A DNA stretch of 51,269 bases from a phage, in sequence record PZ445518.1; one strand, written 5' to 3'. Each line of letters opens with the position of its first letter. Position 1 is the first letter of the stretch. The translations under genes were made by a program, and so were the position numbers. The notes beneath the pieces were generated by a model. It was not told the origin of the DNA. It did not search any database and saw nothing but the letters and a program-made list of their open reading frames with translations. Below, piece after piece: positions 20,699-48,690 of this stretch.

Positions 20699-20744
20699 AC
20701 TATACACGATCTTGGGCATCGCGTTTAGCAAAAAGTGCTATTTG
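20699..20744 (-). promoter_or_regulatory. conserved-element promoter cassette (-10 TATAGT) for Cor-like operon
   Basis: Reverse complement of GTTTAGCAAAAAGTGCTATTTG, about 20 nt spacer, TATAGT, leader CAACAACAACTAAGGAG. Confidence 0.5.
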
Positions 20745-21110
20745 TTATTTTTTGTTTTCCGGTGTTATCGAATTTAAGACGGCGTAAATTTAGCGCAAAA
20801 TTTAGACAACATAAGATCAATAAACAATCAATAAAATAGATATATACATATAAAATCAATAGTTTATTTATTTATGTATGTATATTTGTTTTTTCTTGTT
20901 ATCTGCGTTTCTTGTGGTTTTGGTTGTTTGTGGTGATTTTTCTTTCTGAGTATCTGTATGTGCCATCATTCATGTGTATGTATATAATCCGGCGTATCTG
21001 AGAGAACAGGGGAACAAGAAAAATAACACACATTAATCATTAACTTATGAGTCAAATCTGTTTTCTTGCCATCTGAGAACGTTTAGAAAACAGAAAAAAC
21101 AAAACAGCTA
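20745..21110. promoter_or_regulatory. AT-rich divergent control region A
   Basis: About 365 bp without ORFs; TATTTATTTATGTATGTATAT and GTATCTGTATGTG word repeats; GGGAACAAGAAAAA..ACACATTAA box shared with region B. Confidence 0.5.
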
Positions 21111-21138
21111 TTGACTAAATCAACCAAATGGCTACAAT
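21111..21138 (+). promoter_or_regulatory. sigma70-type promoter for recombination module
   Basis: TTGACT, 16-nt spacer, TACAAT; about 30 nt upstream of exonuclease ATG. Confidence 0.6.
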
Positions 21139-21168
21139 GCACGCATAAAGCAACAAGGAGCATTAAAG

Positions 21169-22224
21169 ATGAGTGATTTTAACGCCTACACTAGCGAAGA
21201 AATGAGCAACGAGCTTTATCATGATCCTAACGCGTGGACGGCTGAATATGTCAGCGGTTCCAGCCTAGCGGAGATTTACAGCACTTGCCCGGCGTACTGG
21301 AAGTACAAGCCGCGCCAGGAAACTAAAGCACTTGTTTTCGGTACGCAGTCGCATACCAACTTTGAAAGCAAGGAGCTATTCGAAAAAACATATCGCCGCG
21401 CACCGTCGCAGGATGATTTTAAAGACCTGATCACTAGTCAAACGGCGTTAGCATCAAAGCTGAAATCTTTTGGCCTGAAAGGTACGACGGGTAAACAATA
21501 CCCTGAATTACTGGAAATGCTGTACAAGTGCGGCGAGGATCTCAATGTGTGGTGGCTTATCGAAATGATGGCAGAATGCCAGGCCGCAGCGGACGGAGTG
21601 CAGTTAATAGACGCTAAAGATTATGATGCCTGTGTAGCGATGCGGCGCGTACTTGAGGCCATACCGGAGCATAACGCTTGCATGAACAGCCCAACCGCGC
21701 AGCGTGAAATGTCAATATTTGGGATCATCAACGGCGTAAAAGTAAAAGTGCGTCTTGATCACGTTGACGTAAACAAGGATGTAAAGGCAACAATCATTAA
21801 CGGTTACGACGAAAAAGGCAGGCCGATTTATGAAGAAGTCACCTATCCAGAAGCGGTGATTATCACTGACTACAAAACAACGGTTAGCGCAAATCCGGTT
21901 GACTTCCAGCGCCTGGCTTACAATCACGGCTATTATCTTAAAATGGCTTTGCAACATGACTTATTCAAAAAGGCTTATCCAGACGAGGAAAGGCCAGTAA
22001 TTGTAAGATTGCTTGCGCAGGAGAAGAAAGAGCCTTACTTGCCGCTTGCTTTCCGCATGAATATTGAGCAATTGAAGATCGGGCGCATCCAGTACATGAG
22101 CGTGATCAACAAGTTCAACGTTTGCCAGCAGTTAGACGAATGGCCTTCGTATGCAAACGGGCAACCGGAAATTGATCTTGATACTCCTGATTGGGTTCGT
22201 GCTCAATTCAGGCATTATCTTTGA
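21169..22224 (+). CDS. PD-(D/E)XK family recombination exonuclease
   Basis: 351 aa; D...D/E-x-K arrangement (VRLDHVDV ... IITDYKTT); first gene of recombination module. Confidence 0.65.
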   Translation: MSDFNAYTSEEMSNELYHDPNAWTAEYVSGSSLAEIYSTCPAYWKYKPRQETKALVFGTQSHTNFESKELFEKTYRRAPSQDDFKDLITSQTALASKLKSFGLKGTTGKQYPELLEMLYKCGEDLNVWWLIEMMAECQAAADGVQLIDAKDYDACVAMRRVLEAIPEHNACMNSPTAQREMSIFGIINGVKVKVRLDHVDVNKDVKATIINGYDEKGRPIYEEVTYPEAVIITDYKTTVSANPVDFQRLAYNHGYYLKMALQHDLFKKAYPDEERPVIVRLLAQEKKEPYLPLAFRMNIEQLKIGRIQYMSVINKFNVCQQLDEWPSYANGQPEIDLDTPDWVRAQFRHYL

Positions 22225-22299
22225 TAAACTAAACAAATAGCTAAACTTTTATAATGGTTGGTGATATAATTCGCCAACCAGATAACGGGAGAATGAGGA

Positions 22300-22557
22300 A
22301 TGACAGACAAAGACAATGCCACATTATTGCATTTAGAACGATTCATTGATCGAGTAACCATTGCAATGAAAGAATTTATTAAGCCGATGAACATTAAAGA
22401 GTCGGAAGAAATGAAGACTTACATCAAGGACGTGGTTGCATCCATTGACAACGTTATCCTTGTTGCAACGATGAGCAAGGGAAACAAAGAGCGCGAGAGG
22501 TTGGTTGCTGAATCAACAGAAGAATTTATTAAAATGCTTGAAAGCGAGAAGGAATAA
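22300..22557 (+). CDS. hypothetical protein
   Basis: 85-aa ORF between exonuclease and annealing protein. Confidence 0.45.
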   Translation: MTDKDNATLLHLERFIDRVTIAMKEFIKPMNIKESEEMKTYIKDVVASIDNVILVATMSKGNKERERLVAESTEEFIKMLESEKE

Positions 22558-22560
22558 GAA

Positions 22561-23214
22561 ATGAAGTTATCCGATCAGTTTGACAAAGTTTTGCCAGCAT
22601 TGCACAAAGCGCGCAGCTTGTTTGTAAAGGTTAAAAAGGATCGCCAAAACAGCCACCTTAAAAACCGTTATGCTACGCTTGATTCAGTCCTAGATGCCAT
22701 TACCCCAGCATTGATGGATAATGAGCTTATGATAATGCAGGACGGAGAAAGAATTGATGTAAGTACATTGCGGGTTGAGACTACCGTAATGCATGTTTCG
22801 GGCCAGTGGGTAAAATTCTATTTTGACATCCCGATCGTGAAGAACGATCCGCAGGGCGTAGGATCTGCTTTCACATACGGGCGTCGTTATTCTGCGGCGG
22901 CGGCCTTCGGATTAAGCCAGGCGGACGATGACGCACAAATCGCAGTCAAAACAGTAAACGACTGGAAGCGCGATATTGAAAAATGCGAAAGCGTAGGAGA
23001 ATTGCAAGAAGTCCTTAAAAACGCATGGAAATCAAGCGACGCGGCAAGCAAGCAAGTAATCCGCGATCACTATGAGAAGCGCAAGGCTGAAATTGAGATA
23101 GGCGGCGCGCGCGGATTTAATCCGGCAAAACCGAAAGAAAACCTAGCCAGCGATGCCGTTGACACTCCGAATATCGAGAAAGTAAAATCACAAAGCATCA
23201 CTGACTTTGAATAA
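22561..23214 (+). CDS. single-strand annealing protein (Erf-like)
   Basis: 217 aa; [11 protein letters not shown]-type N-terminal block; located between exonuclease and SSB. Confidence 0.6.
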
Positions 23215-23257
23215 TAAACGGGGCGCTTGCGCCCCTTTTGTCATAGGAGAAAACAAA

Positions 23258-47335: not shown

Positions 47336-47375
47336 CACGAATTGCTAAACGCGGGGCGCAATGCCTCGCTATAAT
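47330..47375 (+). promoter_or_regulatory. conserved-element promoter cassette (variant element; -10 TATAAT)
   Basis: AAATAGCACGAATTGCTAAAC, 19 nt, TATAAT. Confidence 0.55.
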
Positions 47376-47405
47376 GCAAACACCAATCAACGAGAGGAAA
47401 CAATC

Positions 47406-47807
47406 ATGGTGGAGTTAAACGACATTCGCGTTGGAACAAAATTTCGCGTAACCTGGGCAGATAAATATTGTGGCGTTAGCAAGGGCCAGGTTGTTGCGGT
47501 GGATAGTATTTATCGTGGTGTTAGTGGTGACTTTCGCCGTCCGCGCATCAATAATGGCTATATCATTACTCGCCGTATTGGCTTTGATAATTATTGCGTA
47601 GTGGCGACTCAAGGAGTTTTGATTGAGCTTAAGAGAATCAGCGATCATCGCGGTCGTCATGTTAAGGCAATGAAAACACCATTTCAGCGAGCGAGATACG
47701 ATGCGCGACGTATGCGCCGACTTGCGCGAAATGCGATCAAGTTCAAAAAGCCTGGCGATGATTTTTACGGCATGTATAAGGGGATTGCGCGCAATGCTGG
47801 GAAATAA
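47406..47807 (+). CDS. hypothetical protein (basic)
   Basis: ATG 47406 after GAGAGGAAA, downstream of TATAAT of promoter cassette. Confidence 0.5.
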   Translation: MVELNDIRVGTKFRVTWADKYCGVSKGQVVAVDSIYRGVSGDFRRPRINNGYIITRRIGFDNYCVVATQGVLIELKRISDHRGRHVKAMKTPFQRARYDARRMRRLARNAIKFKKPGDDFYGMYKGIARNAGK

Positions 47808-47906
47808 CAATAACGCAACGAATCCTAAGACACCTTTTGATTTTCATTCCGCAATGATTGCGGTATTATCAATGCTACTTTTTCTTTATAGCATGAGGGC
47901 GCTACT

Positions 47907-48155
47907 ATGGTTTTTAACGCATTGAAACGACTGTTTAAGCCGGAATACCGGATCGTATTTTGCCGCGACTGTTCTACTTATCATGTGCAGCGACGCAGCT
48001 TAGGCGGCAATTGGCACTATGTTACAGACGACTTTTTCGGCATCATTGCCACTGAATTTAAGTATTACAGCGATGCTTATATGTACGTCAAGAAGCGCCA
48101 CCGCTTACGCAAGTGTCGTTTTTCCGTGCTGATTCACGTTAATGATTGTTACTGA
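47907..48155 (+). CDS. hypothetical protein (Cys-containing)
   Basis: 82-aa ORF. Confidence 0.4.
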   Translation: MVFNALKRLFKPEYRIVFCRDCSTYHVQRRSLGGNWHYVTDDFFGIIATEFKYYSDAYMYVKKRHRLRKCRFSVLIHVNDCY

Positions 48156-48162
48156 GGTGAAA

Positions 48163-48345
48163 ATGAAAACTGGTATTATTATTCTTTTCCTGATTCTTTT
48201 CGGCAGTCATTTAACCATTAACTATGAGGGCATTATGGCCTTTTGGGGCAACTTGATGATGTTTGCCGCTGGTTCAATTGCTGGCTACTCTGACGGGAAA
48301 AAGGATGGTGTGCGCAAGATGCTGATGGGGCTTAAACAAAAATAA
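48163..48345 (+). CDS. small membrane protein
   Basis: ATG 48163 after GAGGTGA; two hydrophobic segments. Confidence 0.4.
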   Translation: MKTGIIILFLILFGSHLTINYEGIMAFWGNLMMFAAGSIAGYSDGKKDGVRKMLMGLKQK

Positions 48346-48356
48346 GGGGATATGAA

Positions 48357-48647
48357 ATGGCAAACAAAACTTACCGCAAACTACTGGTTAACGCTTTTGA
48401 AAACATCGCGCAGTGTAACAAGTGGAACGACTCTAAACACTCGCCAATCACAATGAAGCGCGCCGGATTCAAAAATACTCGTTCATGGGCGCGAGCTTTC
48501 GCAGCTTGCTATATGCCGGATGGCGGACTAGGGGTGATGAACGATTTTTTGATCAACATGATAGAGGAAGCGGCGCGAGAGGATCGACCGCTGACACAGC
48601 GAGATTTTGACGGCTTCGCGCGCGATGAGCTTTACTATCTGAGTTAA
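48357..48647 (+). CDS. hypothetical protein
   Basis: 96-aa ORF; stop TAA immediately followed by TAG of conserved element. Confidence 0.5.
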   Translation: MANKTYRKLLVNAFENIAQCNKWNDSKHSPITMKRAGFKNTRSWARAFAACYMPDGGLGVMNDFLINMIEEAAREDRPLTQRDFDGFARDELYYLS

Positions 48648-48690
48648 TAGCACTTTTTGTTAAAACTTCCGCAAGGGCATTTGGTAAAGT
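48645..48690 (+). promoter_or_regulatory. conserved-element promoter cassette (-10 TAAAGT in hairpin loop)
   Basis: TAATAGCACTTTTTGTTAAAAC, stem AAGGGCA..TGCCCTT enclosing TAAAGT. Confidence 0.45.

Follow-up and report, generated by a model that had tools for sequence, protein, structure and literature searches.

Repeated Boxes in the Genome of Shigella Phage JK16

The window, a stretch of 51,269 nucleotides (PZ445518.1), is the genome of Shigella phage JK16, a member of the Drexlerviridae. A repeat that an earlier sequence-only reading had listed at 18 positions is present at all of them (18/18), with nine copies on each strand, those at 1567, 26682, and 47332 being more diverged; when up to two mismatches to TAGCACTTTTTGYTAAAAC were allowed, 15 hits were obtained, compared with 0.00 expected from 100 shuffles. 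The repeat forms a 20-bp box with the layout A-TAGCAC-TTTTT-GTTAAA-AC, and the distance from the start of the box to the ATG decomposes into 20 + 18 + 6 + 26–40 nt. The features of the window are collected in Table 1.

Table 1. Box-containing cassettes, solitary boxes, and σ70 promoters in the JK16 genome (target genes are predictions)
Position	Strand	Box	Spacer	−10	Target or context
1566–1585	+	ATAGCACTAATTGCTAAAAA		None at class II distance	TAG is the large terminase gene stop codon; terminator hairpin and portal gene follow
6186–6213	+	Backward box (6190–6209, −) in spacer	16 nt	TTGCAC-16-(TGc)TATCAT	Predicted σ70 promoter of major head gene
9920–9963	−	Box	18 nt	TAGATT	Class II-type; antisense to tail genes; faces bidirectional terminator after major tail gene; no ORF
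20699–20741	−	ATAGCACTTTTTGCTAAACG (20722–20741)	17 nt	TATAGT (20699–20704)	Class II-type; 89-aa gene, 20667–20398
26681–26700	+	ATAGCACTTTTTGCTAATGA, diverged		None	Adjoins RBS of − strand tail fiber gene
28243–28286	+	ATAGCATTTTTTGTTAAAAC	18 nt	TATTAT	ATP-dependent helicase gene (28319); box adjoins RBS and start of divergent regulator gene gp02, facing away from it
30732–30775	+	Consensus (30732–30751)	Hairpin GGCGCG..GCGCC, −12.1 kcal/mol	CATAAT	Dam methyltransferase gene; box TAG is the VRR-NUC gene stop codon
31803–31846	+	Consensus	Hairpin, −14.1 kcal/mol, also terminator-like	CATAAT	Gene at 31879
35021–35064	−	ATAGCATTTTTTGTTAAAAC	Hairpin, terminator-like	TATATT	ORF 34983–34759, unannotated in JK16 RefSeq record
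37183–37226	−	ATAGCACTTTTTGACAAAAC	18 nt	TAAAAT within hairpin loop	DNA helicase gene (37154–35574)
38175–38218	−	Box	Hairpin, −14.0 kcal/mol	CATAAT	Gene 38143–37916
40092–40135	−	Box		TATAGT in hairpin loop (−13.8 kcal/mol)	Gene 40060–39863
41397–41440	−	Consensus		TACATT	Gene 41361–41089; first promoter of leftward early gene block; no upstream gene
41980–42008	+	No box	17 nt	TTGACA-17-GATAAT (near-consensus σ70 promoter)	Upstream of first rightward early gene (42038–42502, DUF7174); listed for contrast
42768–42811	+	Consensus		CATAAT	ORF-less leader of ~200 nt, then gene at 43014
44562–44604	+	Consensus	17 nt	TATAAT in hairpin loop	Gene 44635
46012–46056	+	ATAGCACTTTTTGCAAAAAA	19 nt	TATAGT in hairpin loop	Gene 46088
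47332–47375	+	GAA-type, ATAGCACGAATTGCTAAACG	Hairpin, −13.3 kcal/mol	TATAAT	Gene 47406
48647–48690	+	Consensus		TAAAGT in hairpin loop (−14.2 kcal/mol)	Gene 48723

The stop codon of the upstream gene had been placed inside the element in at least 11 copies; in our count, 10 copies have a TAG that ends an upstream ORF of 40 or more codons, and in three further copies a TAA is located 5–6 nt upstream. One of these 10 ORFs, on the + strand at 28246, is probably spurious, because the neighboring gene lies on the − strand. As to whether such a repeat had been described for T1-like phages, phage TLS carries 18 intergenic 21-nt repeats, aaATAGCACnnnTTGnTAAAA, the function of which was stated to be unknown (PMC11447400), and the consensus that we obtained across 54 cassettes, AATAGCACtttTTGcTAAAAc, fits the definition of the TLS DR family. 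What is new here is the marbox identity of this known Drexlerviridae repeat and the −10 hexamer at a fixed distance from it.

Promoter Geometry of the Cassettes

The earlier census of −10-like hexamers (CATAAT in four copies, TATAAT in two, TATAGT in three, and TATATT, TACATT, TATTAT, TAAAGT, and TAAAAT in one each) is exact, and a fifteenth, TAGATT, lies at 9920–9925 (−). In 12 copies, 18 nt separate the last base of the 20-bp box from the hexamer; this gap is 17 nt in two copies and 19 nt in one. Among 75 boxes from JK16, T1, Rtp, and Klebsiella phage Sushi, which represent four genera, a TAnnnT hexamer with at least 4/6 matches is found exactly 20 nt after the 15-mer in 54, against a background of 0.019 per position; in another 0.9 Mb of T1-like contigs (120 IMG/VR loci), a −10-like hexamer follows at the same offset in 281 of the 383 distinct boxes. 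The sequence of the spacer is not conserved. The −10 consensus of the cassettes is GgTATaaT, conservation is strongest at the non-A/T letters GCAC and TG (~2 bits each), and, in the 54-cassette consensus, a conserved cAtcgAaAc begins at the predicted transcription start. Relative to this start, the box extends from about −51 to −32, with its center near −41.5.

The cassettes have no recognizable −35 element. As had been remarked, the nearest −35-like hexamer, TTGYTA, lies 22 bp from the −10, too great a distance for a −35, and the hexamer at the 17-bp spacing, AAAACn, matches the −35 consensus at 2/6 positions; class II promoters average 1.9 such matches (PMC10268841). The overall layout recognized from the letters alone, namely, a box heading a −10 at a fixed distance, a frequent hairpin, and a short leader with a Shine–Dalgarno sequence and ATG, is borne out by these comparisons.

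The Box Matches the Marbox Consensus

The core of the box, GCACTTTTTGTTAAA, agrees at 15/15 positions with the published marbox consensus, 5'-GCAHWWWWTGYYAAA-3' (PMC6900184), and has the asymmetric organization that defines a marbox, with GCAC as the A site and YAAA as the B site. The JK16 genome contains 13 exact and nine one-mismatch matches to this consensus, compared with 2.46 expected and a shuffle maximum of 7. [quoted passage not shown] We found no paper linking the Drexlerviridae repeat to the marbox. In the E. coli genome sequence, the micF promoter has the structure ACAGCACTGAATGTCAAAAC-N18-TAGAAT-N7-+1 and is described in the literature as class II, with a forward box centered at −41.5; the phage cassettes have the structure ATAGCACTTTTTGTTAAAAC-N18-TATAAT-like. 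This class II position (forward orientation, overlap with the −35 site, and the micF distance to the −10) is found in 15 JK16 cassettes. Compared with host marboxes, the phage boxes vary less and extend further (AATA before GCAC and an AAAAC end), which could reflect a dedicated reader.

Boxes are present in JK16, T1, Rtp, and Sushi, and a Dhillonvirus control contained none. The box is conserved family-wide and is invariant across genera whose proteins are only 50–60% identical, and the first promoter of the leftward early block has no phage gene ahead of it; together, these features favor a reader that is already in the cell. No AraC-type helix-turn-helix (HTH) domain and no MarA homolog was detected in the four phage genomes by Pfam scans or by tblastn and phmmer searches with MarA (best E-value, 0.23).

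MarA, SoxS, and Rob are regulators of stress responses and antibiotic resistance in E. coli. Given the match to the MarA/SoxS/Rob site and its activating position, the phage probably makes use of a host regulon: we consider it likely that each forward copy represents the upstream half of a promoter of the class II mar/sox/rob type, with Rob, MarA, or SoxS of the host as its reader, and that about 15 early and middle phage genes are probably driven in this way. Of the two options previously offered for the element, the one in which it is bound by a phage or host factor is preferable, and it can now be narrowed to a consensus MarA/SoxS/Rob site in the class II position. From the sequence, we infer both the binding of Rob, MarA, or SoxS and the start sites. 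Under this model, the box would be bound by a monomeric AraC-family activator (MarA, SoxS, or Rob; RamA in Klebsiella), with its GCAC end distal and 18 bp separating it from a good −10, and, spanning about −51 to −32, it would thereby replace the missing −35 hexamer. The bound activator would recruit σ70 RNA polymerase through α-CTD and σ region 4, as solved for micF, and transcription would start ~7 nt past the −10, at the A of cATCGAAACGAA, yielding a leader of 20–33 nt with a Shine–Dalgarno sequence and ATG. Unstressed cells contain little MarA and SoxS, and Rob is for the most part inactive unless inducers are present, yet T1-like phages grow very fast in plain medium; it would be surprising if they depended fully on these activators. 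For no Drexlerviridae phage does the searchable literature offer data on binding, transcription, or 5' ends.

Hairpins and Recombination

A G+C-rich stem-loop, located in the spacer or enclosing the −10, is present in 40 of the 54 cassettes (about three quarters) and reaches no further downstream than the predicted start site; it would therefore be present only in read-through RNA from upstream, on which it probably acts. In the remaining 14/54 cassettes, the hairpin is absent or weak (minimum free energy above −6 kcal/mol), and its position varies. Two JK16 hairpins resemble terminators, and the T1 record annotates its hairpins as rho-independent terminators. With the box usually supplying the TAG stop of the upstream gene, and the hairpin and T-rich −10 region behind it probably attenuating or bounding read-through RNA, each cassette may operate as a compact, insulated stop-terminate-restart module.

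The suggested analogy to the promoter-early-stem-loop (PeSL) modules of phage T4, including a role in recombination, is weakly supported by synteny: 7 of the 32 breakpoints are no more than 60 nt away from a box, compared with 4.5–6.7% of random positions, genic ones included. In phage tunus, one insertion is flanked by two copies of the box of the 42768–42811 cassette.

Boxes at Late Genes and Alternative Readings

Several boxes at late genes have positions or orientations incapable of activation, which counts against the host-activator reading. The boxes at 6190, 9944, and 26681 face away from the adjacent late gene, and three boxes (1566–1585, +; 6190–6209, −; and 26681–26700, +) lack a −10 at the right distance. 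The antisense arrangement at 9920–9963 recurs in T1 at 18830 (−), and the T1 equivalent of the major head gene promoter is TTGACG-16-(TGc)TATTAT.

A phage-encoded reader, with the marbox resemblance due to convergence or mimicry, appears unlikely. The first candidate is the Cro/YdaS-like HTH regulator (27755–28231, −; T1 gp23, Rtp52), which would bind as a dimer to the dyad TAGCA-N5-TGYTA centered near −42. Its HTH is related to Cro (best PDB match, E = 5.7e-4), it is a core gene of the family found in ~850 phage records, and a box adjoins its RBS in JK16, T1, Rtp, and Sushi, an autoregulatory layout; the dyad half-sites are 10 bp apart, and the C variant of the box holds TAGCA-N5-TGCTA, fit for a dimeric HTH protein. 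However, the dyad is broken in most JK16 boxes (TGTTA), the base contacts of the recognition helix vary (SQQVVNQ, SNQTVQG, TPQAVEE, and SIQVVQQ) while the box is invariant, and conservation and function of the box depend strongly on orientation, which fits a monomeric asymmetric reader. The second candidate would be some early protein without an assigned fold, for example DUF7174 (42038–42502), the product of the first gene behind the sole near-consensus σ70 promoter; yet it is undetectable in Sushi, and its AF2 model yielded no MarA-like or other significant PDB match. Against any phage-encoded reader, the first leftward early promoter would already require the factor.

It is improbable that the cassettes are factor-independent σ70 promoters, for which a near-consensus −10, the G at −14, and an A/T-rich, UP-like or bent upstream region would suffice, with the box retained on other grounds (the stop codon or recombination, for instance). 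The −10 consensus, GgTATaaT, speaks for this possibility, as does the good growth of the phage without MarA or SoxS inducers, and the TLS authors noted a likeness of the repeat to UP elements (PMC11447400). Against it, the letters under the strongest conservation, GCAC and TG, are not A/T, the T-tract is broken up in the common GAA variant, and only about half of the copies make use of the TAG stop although all 20 bp are conserved. UP elements are A/T-only tracts that occupy −59 to −38, ahead of a −35 hexamer. The UP-like module proposed by the sequence-only reading is not supported: GCAC and TG are needed, a GAA center is tolerated, no −35 hexamer lies downstream, and the box, at about −51 to −32, is outside the UP position.

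More improbable still is that the box belongs to no promoter and acts mainly as a negative or RNA-level signal, be it a repressor site of the stoperator type or, together with the hairpin, an element for termination or processing at gene ends. A stoperator was suggested by the TLS authors (PMC11447400), and the annotated T1 terminators, the two terminator-like JK16 hairpins, and the non-activating late-gene boxes, including the one inside the major head promoter spacer, are in line with such a role. The fixed 18-bp distance to the −10 in 73–84% of hundreds of boxes is, however, a property of promoters, the hairpin is inconstant in both presence and position, and virulent phages of this kind have no known repressor. 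A σ54 promoter, with its consensus TGGCAC-N5-TTGCW and GG and GC dinucleotides exactly 10 bp apart, was rejected, given that the box, TAGCAC-N3-TTGY, has AG instead of GG and a spacing that is 2 bp short.

Comparison with Known Systems

The reading of the box as a host activator site invites comparison with the middle promoters of T4, a temporal class of phage promoters defined by a conserved box that takes the place of the −35 ahead of an ordinary −10. The JK16 box likewise stands in place of the −35; however, the T4 MotA box, at −30, is separated from the −10 by 11–13 bp and is recognized by the phage's own MotA/AsiA (σ appropriation), whereas the JK16 box matches a host activator site and is located 18 bp from the −10. 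T4 PeSLs are short repeated intergenic modules, consisting of a promoter and a stem-loop, at the borders of variable genes, an arrangement shared by the JK16-type cassettes. PeSL promoters are canonical σ70 early promoters with −35 and −10 hexamers ~17 bp apart; the JK16-type cassettes, in contrast, lack a canonical σ70 −35 at 16–18 bp despite their frequent stem-loops and in this differ from PeSLs, and recombination is weakly indicated. The stoperators of mycobacteriophage L5 are similarly numerous, asymmetric, and oriented with transcription (cited in PMC11447400), but they lie inside the transcription units of a temperate phage, where they bind its repressor, and are not paired with a −10 at a fixed distance.

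The TLS repeats DR1–DR18 are the same element, with the same T and GAA subtypes, orientation relative to transcription, ~76 nt to the start codon, and a reversed copy before the major head gene (PMC11447400). The TLS paper considered a stoperator, an enhancer, or an UP-like element without deciding among them and reported neither the fixed-distance −10 nor the marbox identity. With micF-type class II promoters, the phage cassettes share the 15-bp core, forward orientation, 18 bp to the −10, a center at about −41.5, and the lack of a −35, and 15 of the 20 letters of the extended box are identical in micF, including the AAAAC end. Unlike micF, the phage boxes occur in the genome of a virulent phage in 15–18 near-identical copies per 50 kb, overlap the upstream stop codon, and are combined with a hairpin that lies within the spacer or surrounds the −10 and with the conserved cATCGAAACGAA leader.

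The repeat in the genome of Shigella phage JK16

The window, a circular permutation of the whole Shigella phage JK16 genome (Drexlerviridae, Tempevirinae, Warwickvirus), is 100% identical to MK962751/NC_049814 apart from a 585-bp tandem duplication (449 bp identical) in the divergent early control region of the RefSeq sequence, which the window lacks. TAGCACTTTTTGYTAAAAC occurs 15 times in the window at ≤2 mismatches, versus 0.00 expected, and a relaxed search recovered all 18 sites listed in the sequence-only reading, divided 9/9 between the strands. When oriented on this 20-bp element (hereafter, box), 15 of the 18 copies are followed by a -10-like hexamer, at a gap, counted from the final base of the box, of 18 nt (n=12), 17 nt (n=2) or 19 nt (n=1); the hexamers tallied in that reading were exact. 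The TAG within the box serves as the stop codon of the upstream open reading frame (ORF; at least 40 codons) in 10 copies, including one for a probably spurious plus-strand ORF at 28246, and three further copies have TAA 5-6 nt upstream.

Similarity to the marbox and promoter geometry

The 15-bp box core agrees at 15/15 positions with the published consensus of the marbox, 5'-GCAHWWWWTGYYAAA-3' (PMC6900184), the binding site of MarA, SoxS and Rob (and of RamA in Klebsiella), which was derived independently of any phage. The window contains 13 exact and 9 one-mismatch copies of this consensus, versus 2.46 expected and a shuffle maximum of 7. When scored with a position weight matrix built from 72 ChIP-seq MarA/SoxS/Rob/RamA sites of Salmonella (PMC10268841, Table 1), the four main phage variants fall at the 79th-97th percentile of genuine sites, and JK16, T1, Rtp and Klebsiella phage Sushi, representing four genera, each carry 4-9 sites above the 90th percentile, versus 0.03-0.07 in shuffles.

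In the literature, class II promoters are described as missing a recognisable -35 element, and the example given is micF, with a forward box overlapping the -35 position and centred at -41.5. Escherichia coli micF, taken from the genome and used as the sole geometry reference, reads ACAGCACTGAATGTCAAAAC, 18 nt, TAGAAT, 7 nt, +1; fumC and inaA were dropped as second references because the choice of hexamer is ambiguous without a known start site. Phage cassettes consist of ATAGCACTTTTTGTTAAAAC, an 18-nt gap and a TATAAT-like hexamer, sharing with micF 15/20 box letters, orientation and spacing. Across the four genera, a TAnnnT hexamer (≥4/6 matches) lies at the exact micF-type offset from 54/75 boxes, against a background of 0.019 per position; in 120 further T1-like loci from IMG/VR (0.9 Mb), the offset is exact for 281 of the 383 distinct boxes and within ±1 nt for 323. 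An identical scan found no boxes in a Dhillonvirus (Sodalis phage SO-1). The canonical -35 position of the cassettes holds AAAACn, a 2/6 match. By sequence, the box is a marbox of consensus type, placed as in class II promoters.

The consensuses of Lrp, IHF, Fis, CRP and DnaA were also compared; Lrp agreed at 12-13/15 positions and was dropped because the marbox matches at 15/15 and also accounts for the geometry. As the sequence-only reading had concluded, TTGYTA, 22 bp from the -10 hexamer, is too distant to be a -35 element. A sigma54 promoter was rejected (TAGCAC-N3-TTGC vs TGGCAC-N5-TTGC, 2 bp short and with AG for GG), as was an extended -10 within the box (TGnTAAAAC), which would place the start site inside the hairpins and fails to explain the fixed downstream hexamer.

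Features of the JK16 genome associated with the boxes
Feature	Position (strand)	Remarks
Boxes with no -10 partner	1566 (+); 6190 (-); 26681 (+)	adjoin late genes
Predicted major head gene promoter	6186-6213 (+)	TTGCAC-16-(TGc)TATCAT
Backward box	6190-6209 (-)	in spacer of predicted major head promoter
Terminator-like hairpin with T-run	6217-6236	behind head promoter
Antisense class II-type cassette	9920-9963 (-); box 9944-9963	tail gene region
TTGCGC-17-TATAAT	15833-15895 (+)	after terminator of preceding tail gene; span includes degenerate forward box
Cro/YdaS-like regulator gene	27755-28231 (-)	between primase and helicase genes
Predicted promoter of regulator	28310-28282 (-)	TTTAAA-17-TATAAT; overlaps helicase cassette
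Leader cATCGAAACGAA, examples	31853-31866; 35001-35014 (-); 41377-41390 (-)	
74-codon ORF	34759-34983 (-)	immediately behind cassette 35021-35064
First leftward early promoter	41397-41440 (-)	box class
Divergent early control region	41440-42037	A/T-rich
Only outstanding near-consensus sigma70 promoter	41980-42008	promoter scan
DUF7174 gene	42038-42502 (+)	first rightward early gene
ORF-less leader	42812-43013 (+)	~200 nt, G+C-rich; between 42768 cassette and next gene

Candidate readers of the box

The reader would rather probably be host Rob, MarA or SoxS. This assignment is favored by the promoter scan, which yielded a single outstanding near-consensus sigma70 promoter. The first leftward early promoter is of the box class and has no upstream gene, which argues for a factor already present in the cell. 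The sigma70 promoter sits at the right edge of the divergent early control region, which carries GATAAC/GTTATC and TATCTATAT repeats.

The class of the first leftward promoter also weighs against the alternative that a dedicated phage protein, such as the Cro/YdaS-like regulator or the DUF7174 early protein, reads the box, which we regard as unlikely. The regulator is family-wide, its gene adjoins a box in each of the four genera, and a dyad, TAGCA-N5-TGCTA, occurs in the C variant of the box; however, the base-contacting positions of its recognition helix vary among the genera while the box is invariant, and both conservation and function of the box are strongly orientation-dependent, as expected of a monomeric reader. 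DUF7174 (T1 gp77, Rtp gp1), in turn, is not detectable in Sushi, and its AlphaFold2 model (pLDDT 77 overall, with an N-terminal α/β domain of 90 residues at pLDDT ~90) had no significant PDB match in Foldseek. In the regulator, called 'transcriptional regulator', the N-terminal motif DKRxINGNNGTxR is invariant, and Cys residues past the Cro-like helix-turn-helix (HTH) are conserved. A phage-encoded MarA-like protein was rejected: tblastn and phmmer searches of the four genomes with MarA gave a best E-value of 0.23, a weak full-length match to Rtp gp1 being what pointed to DUF7174, and no AraC-type HTH was present among the best 25 of the 36 Pfam families matched by 66 phage ORFs, with E > 5e-4 for the families beyond those 25.

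Cassette anatomy

The consensus over 54 cassettes is AATAGCACtttTTGcTAAAAc-N12-at..GgTATaaTtacc.cAtcgAaAc.aa, the spacer carrying nearly no sequence information. The A of cATCGAAAC is the predicted start site, and the ATG lies 26-40 nt past the -10 hexamer in 48 of the 51 cassettes with an assignable start codon. The 35 nt 3' of the box fold at ≤-6 kcal/mol in 40/54 cassettes (mean -10.0 kcal/mol; mean z-score -2.8), in one of two layouts: in the first, the hairpin occupies the spacer and its 3' arm adjoins the -10 hexamer; in the second, the hexamer lies within the loop and the hairpin stops at the predicted start site. Because both layouts end at or before this site, the promoter's own transcript would be free of the hairpin, which would be present solely in read-through RNA coming from the upstream gene. 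In the T1 record, such hairpins, together with the T-rich -10 region behind them, are annotated as rho-independent terminators, and two JK16 hairpins scored as terminator-like in our scan. We infer that the cassettes act as stop-attenuate-restart modules that are compact and insulated. Because every hairpin has a different sequence, we rejected both an operator of the MerR type in the spacer and a spacer shortened by a cruciform.

A conserved A/C-rich leader starts at the predicted start site of many cassettes in each of the four genera (Table), and whole-cassette subfamilies (e.g., aagggCATTTGgTAaAGTgccctt) recur within and between genomes. A noncoding RNA in the long ORF-less leader was rejected, since Rfam gave no match and the leader folds no better than shuffled sequence (z = +1.3); Rtp has comparable long leaders behind its two rightmost cassettes. 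The 74-codon ORF is absent from the JK16 RefSeq annotation and is annotated in phages Phunderstruck (gp40) and tunus (gp68).

Boxes in other arrangements

Three boxes have no -10 partner (Table). One of them runs backward and fills the spacer of the predicted major head promoter, a layout that T1 shares (TTGACG-16-(TGc)TATTAT), which suggests, as a speculation, that this promoter is repressed by the same factor that reads the boxes. The predicted start lies inside the 5' arm of the hairpin behind the promoter. The antisense cassette faces the bidirectional terminator that follows the major tail gene, where its transcript would end after ~40-50 nt; T1 keeps this arrangement at 18830 (-), whereas in Rtp the counterpart of the 9944 box has the forward orientation and drives an additional gene. 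Downstream of TTGCGC-17-TATAAT, the tail-tip gene leader contains a degenerate forward box, ACAGCACAAAAGGTTAAAAG, part of which is the Shine-Dalgarno sequence; repeat DR8 of phage TLS has the same position.

Modular exchange

In comparison with two close relatives, 7/32 synteny breakpoints lie within 60 nt of a box, versus 4.5-6.7% expected for random positions, genic and intergenic alike. Compared with window positions 42766-42787, phage tunus (L128, 30688-31130) carries a ~440-bp insertion of two small genes with a box copy on either side, as expected if boxes mediate module insertion. In the structural region of Rtp, cassettes stand ahead of HNH and accessory genes that are inserted there. 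These observations are suggestive of box-mediated modular exchange.

Implications and relation to known systems

T1-like phages encode no RNA polymerase or sigma factor, and the box bears on how their transcription is controlled. Tentatively, the sequence data raise the possibility that Drexlerviridae, a family of virulent enterobacterial phages, have as a whole coupled their early and middle transcription to the stress and multidrug-resistance regulon of the host, Mar/Sox/Rob(/Ram). If so, bile salts, fatty acids, salicylate and oxidative stress would tune phage gene expression, which would be boosted in multidrug-resistant mutants overproducing MarA, RamA or SoxS. Replication would multiply the roughly 20 consensus boxes of each genome, which would then titrate the activators. 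This titration could dampen the stress response of the host and set the timing of the early-to-late switch, for example, through relief of the major head promoter, in which a backward box forms the spacer. If confirmed, the dependence of lytic phages of one family on a host stress and antibiotic-resistance regulon would, to our knowledge, be unusual. Multidrug-resistant Escherichia and Klebsiella with upregulated mar, ram or sox would then be especially permissive to Drexlerviridae and Webervirus phages used in therapy, and the cassettes would be a source of compact, insulated, inducible promoter-terminator modules.

The 2024 re-annotation of TLS described 18 intergenic 21-nt direct repeats (consensus aaATAGCACnnnTTGnTAAAA), oriented with transcription ~76 nt 5' of start codons and also seen by its authors in T1, Rtp and Rogue1 (their unpublished observations; PMC11447400); therefore, the repeat itself is not new. 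These authors left its function open, suggesting a stoperator, enhancer or UP-like element (PMC11447400), a question that identity with the marbox makes testable. Our search of the literature found no start-site map for Drexlerviridae and, within what is searchable, no paper linking the marbox, SoxS or Rob to T1-like phages. The promoter type itself is of a known kind, but its wholesale use by virulent phages of one family appears not to have been reported.
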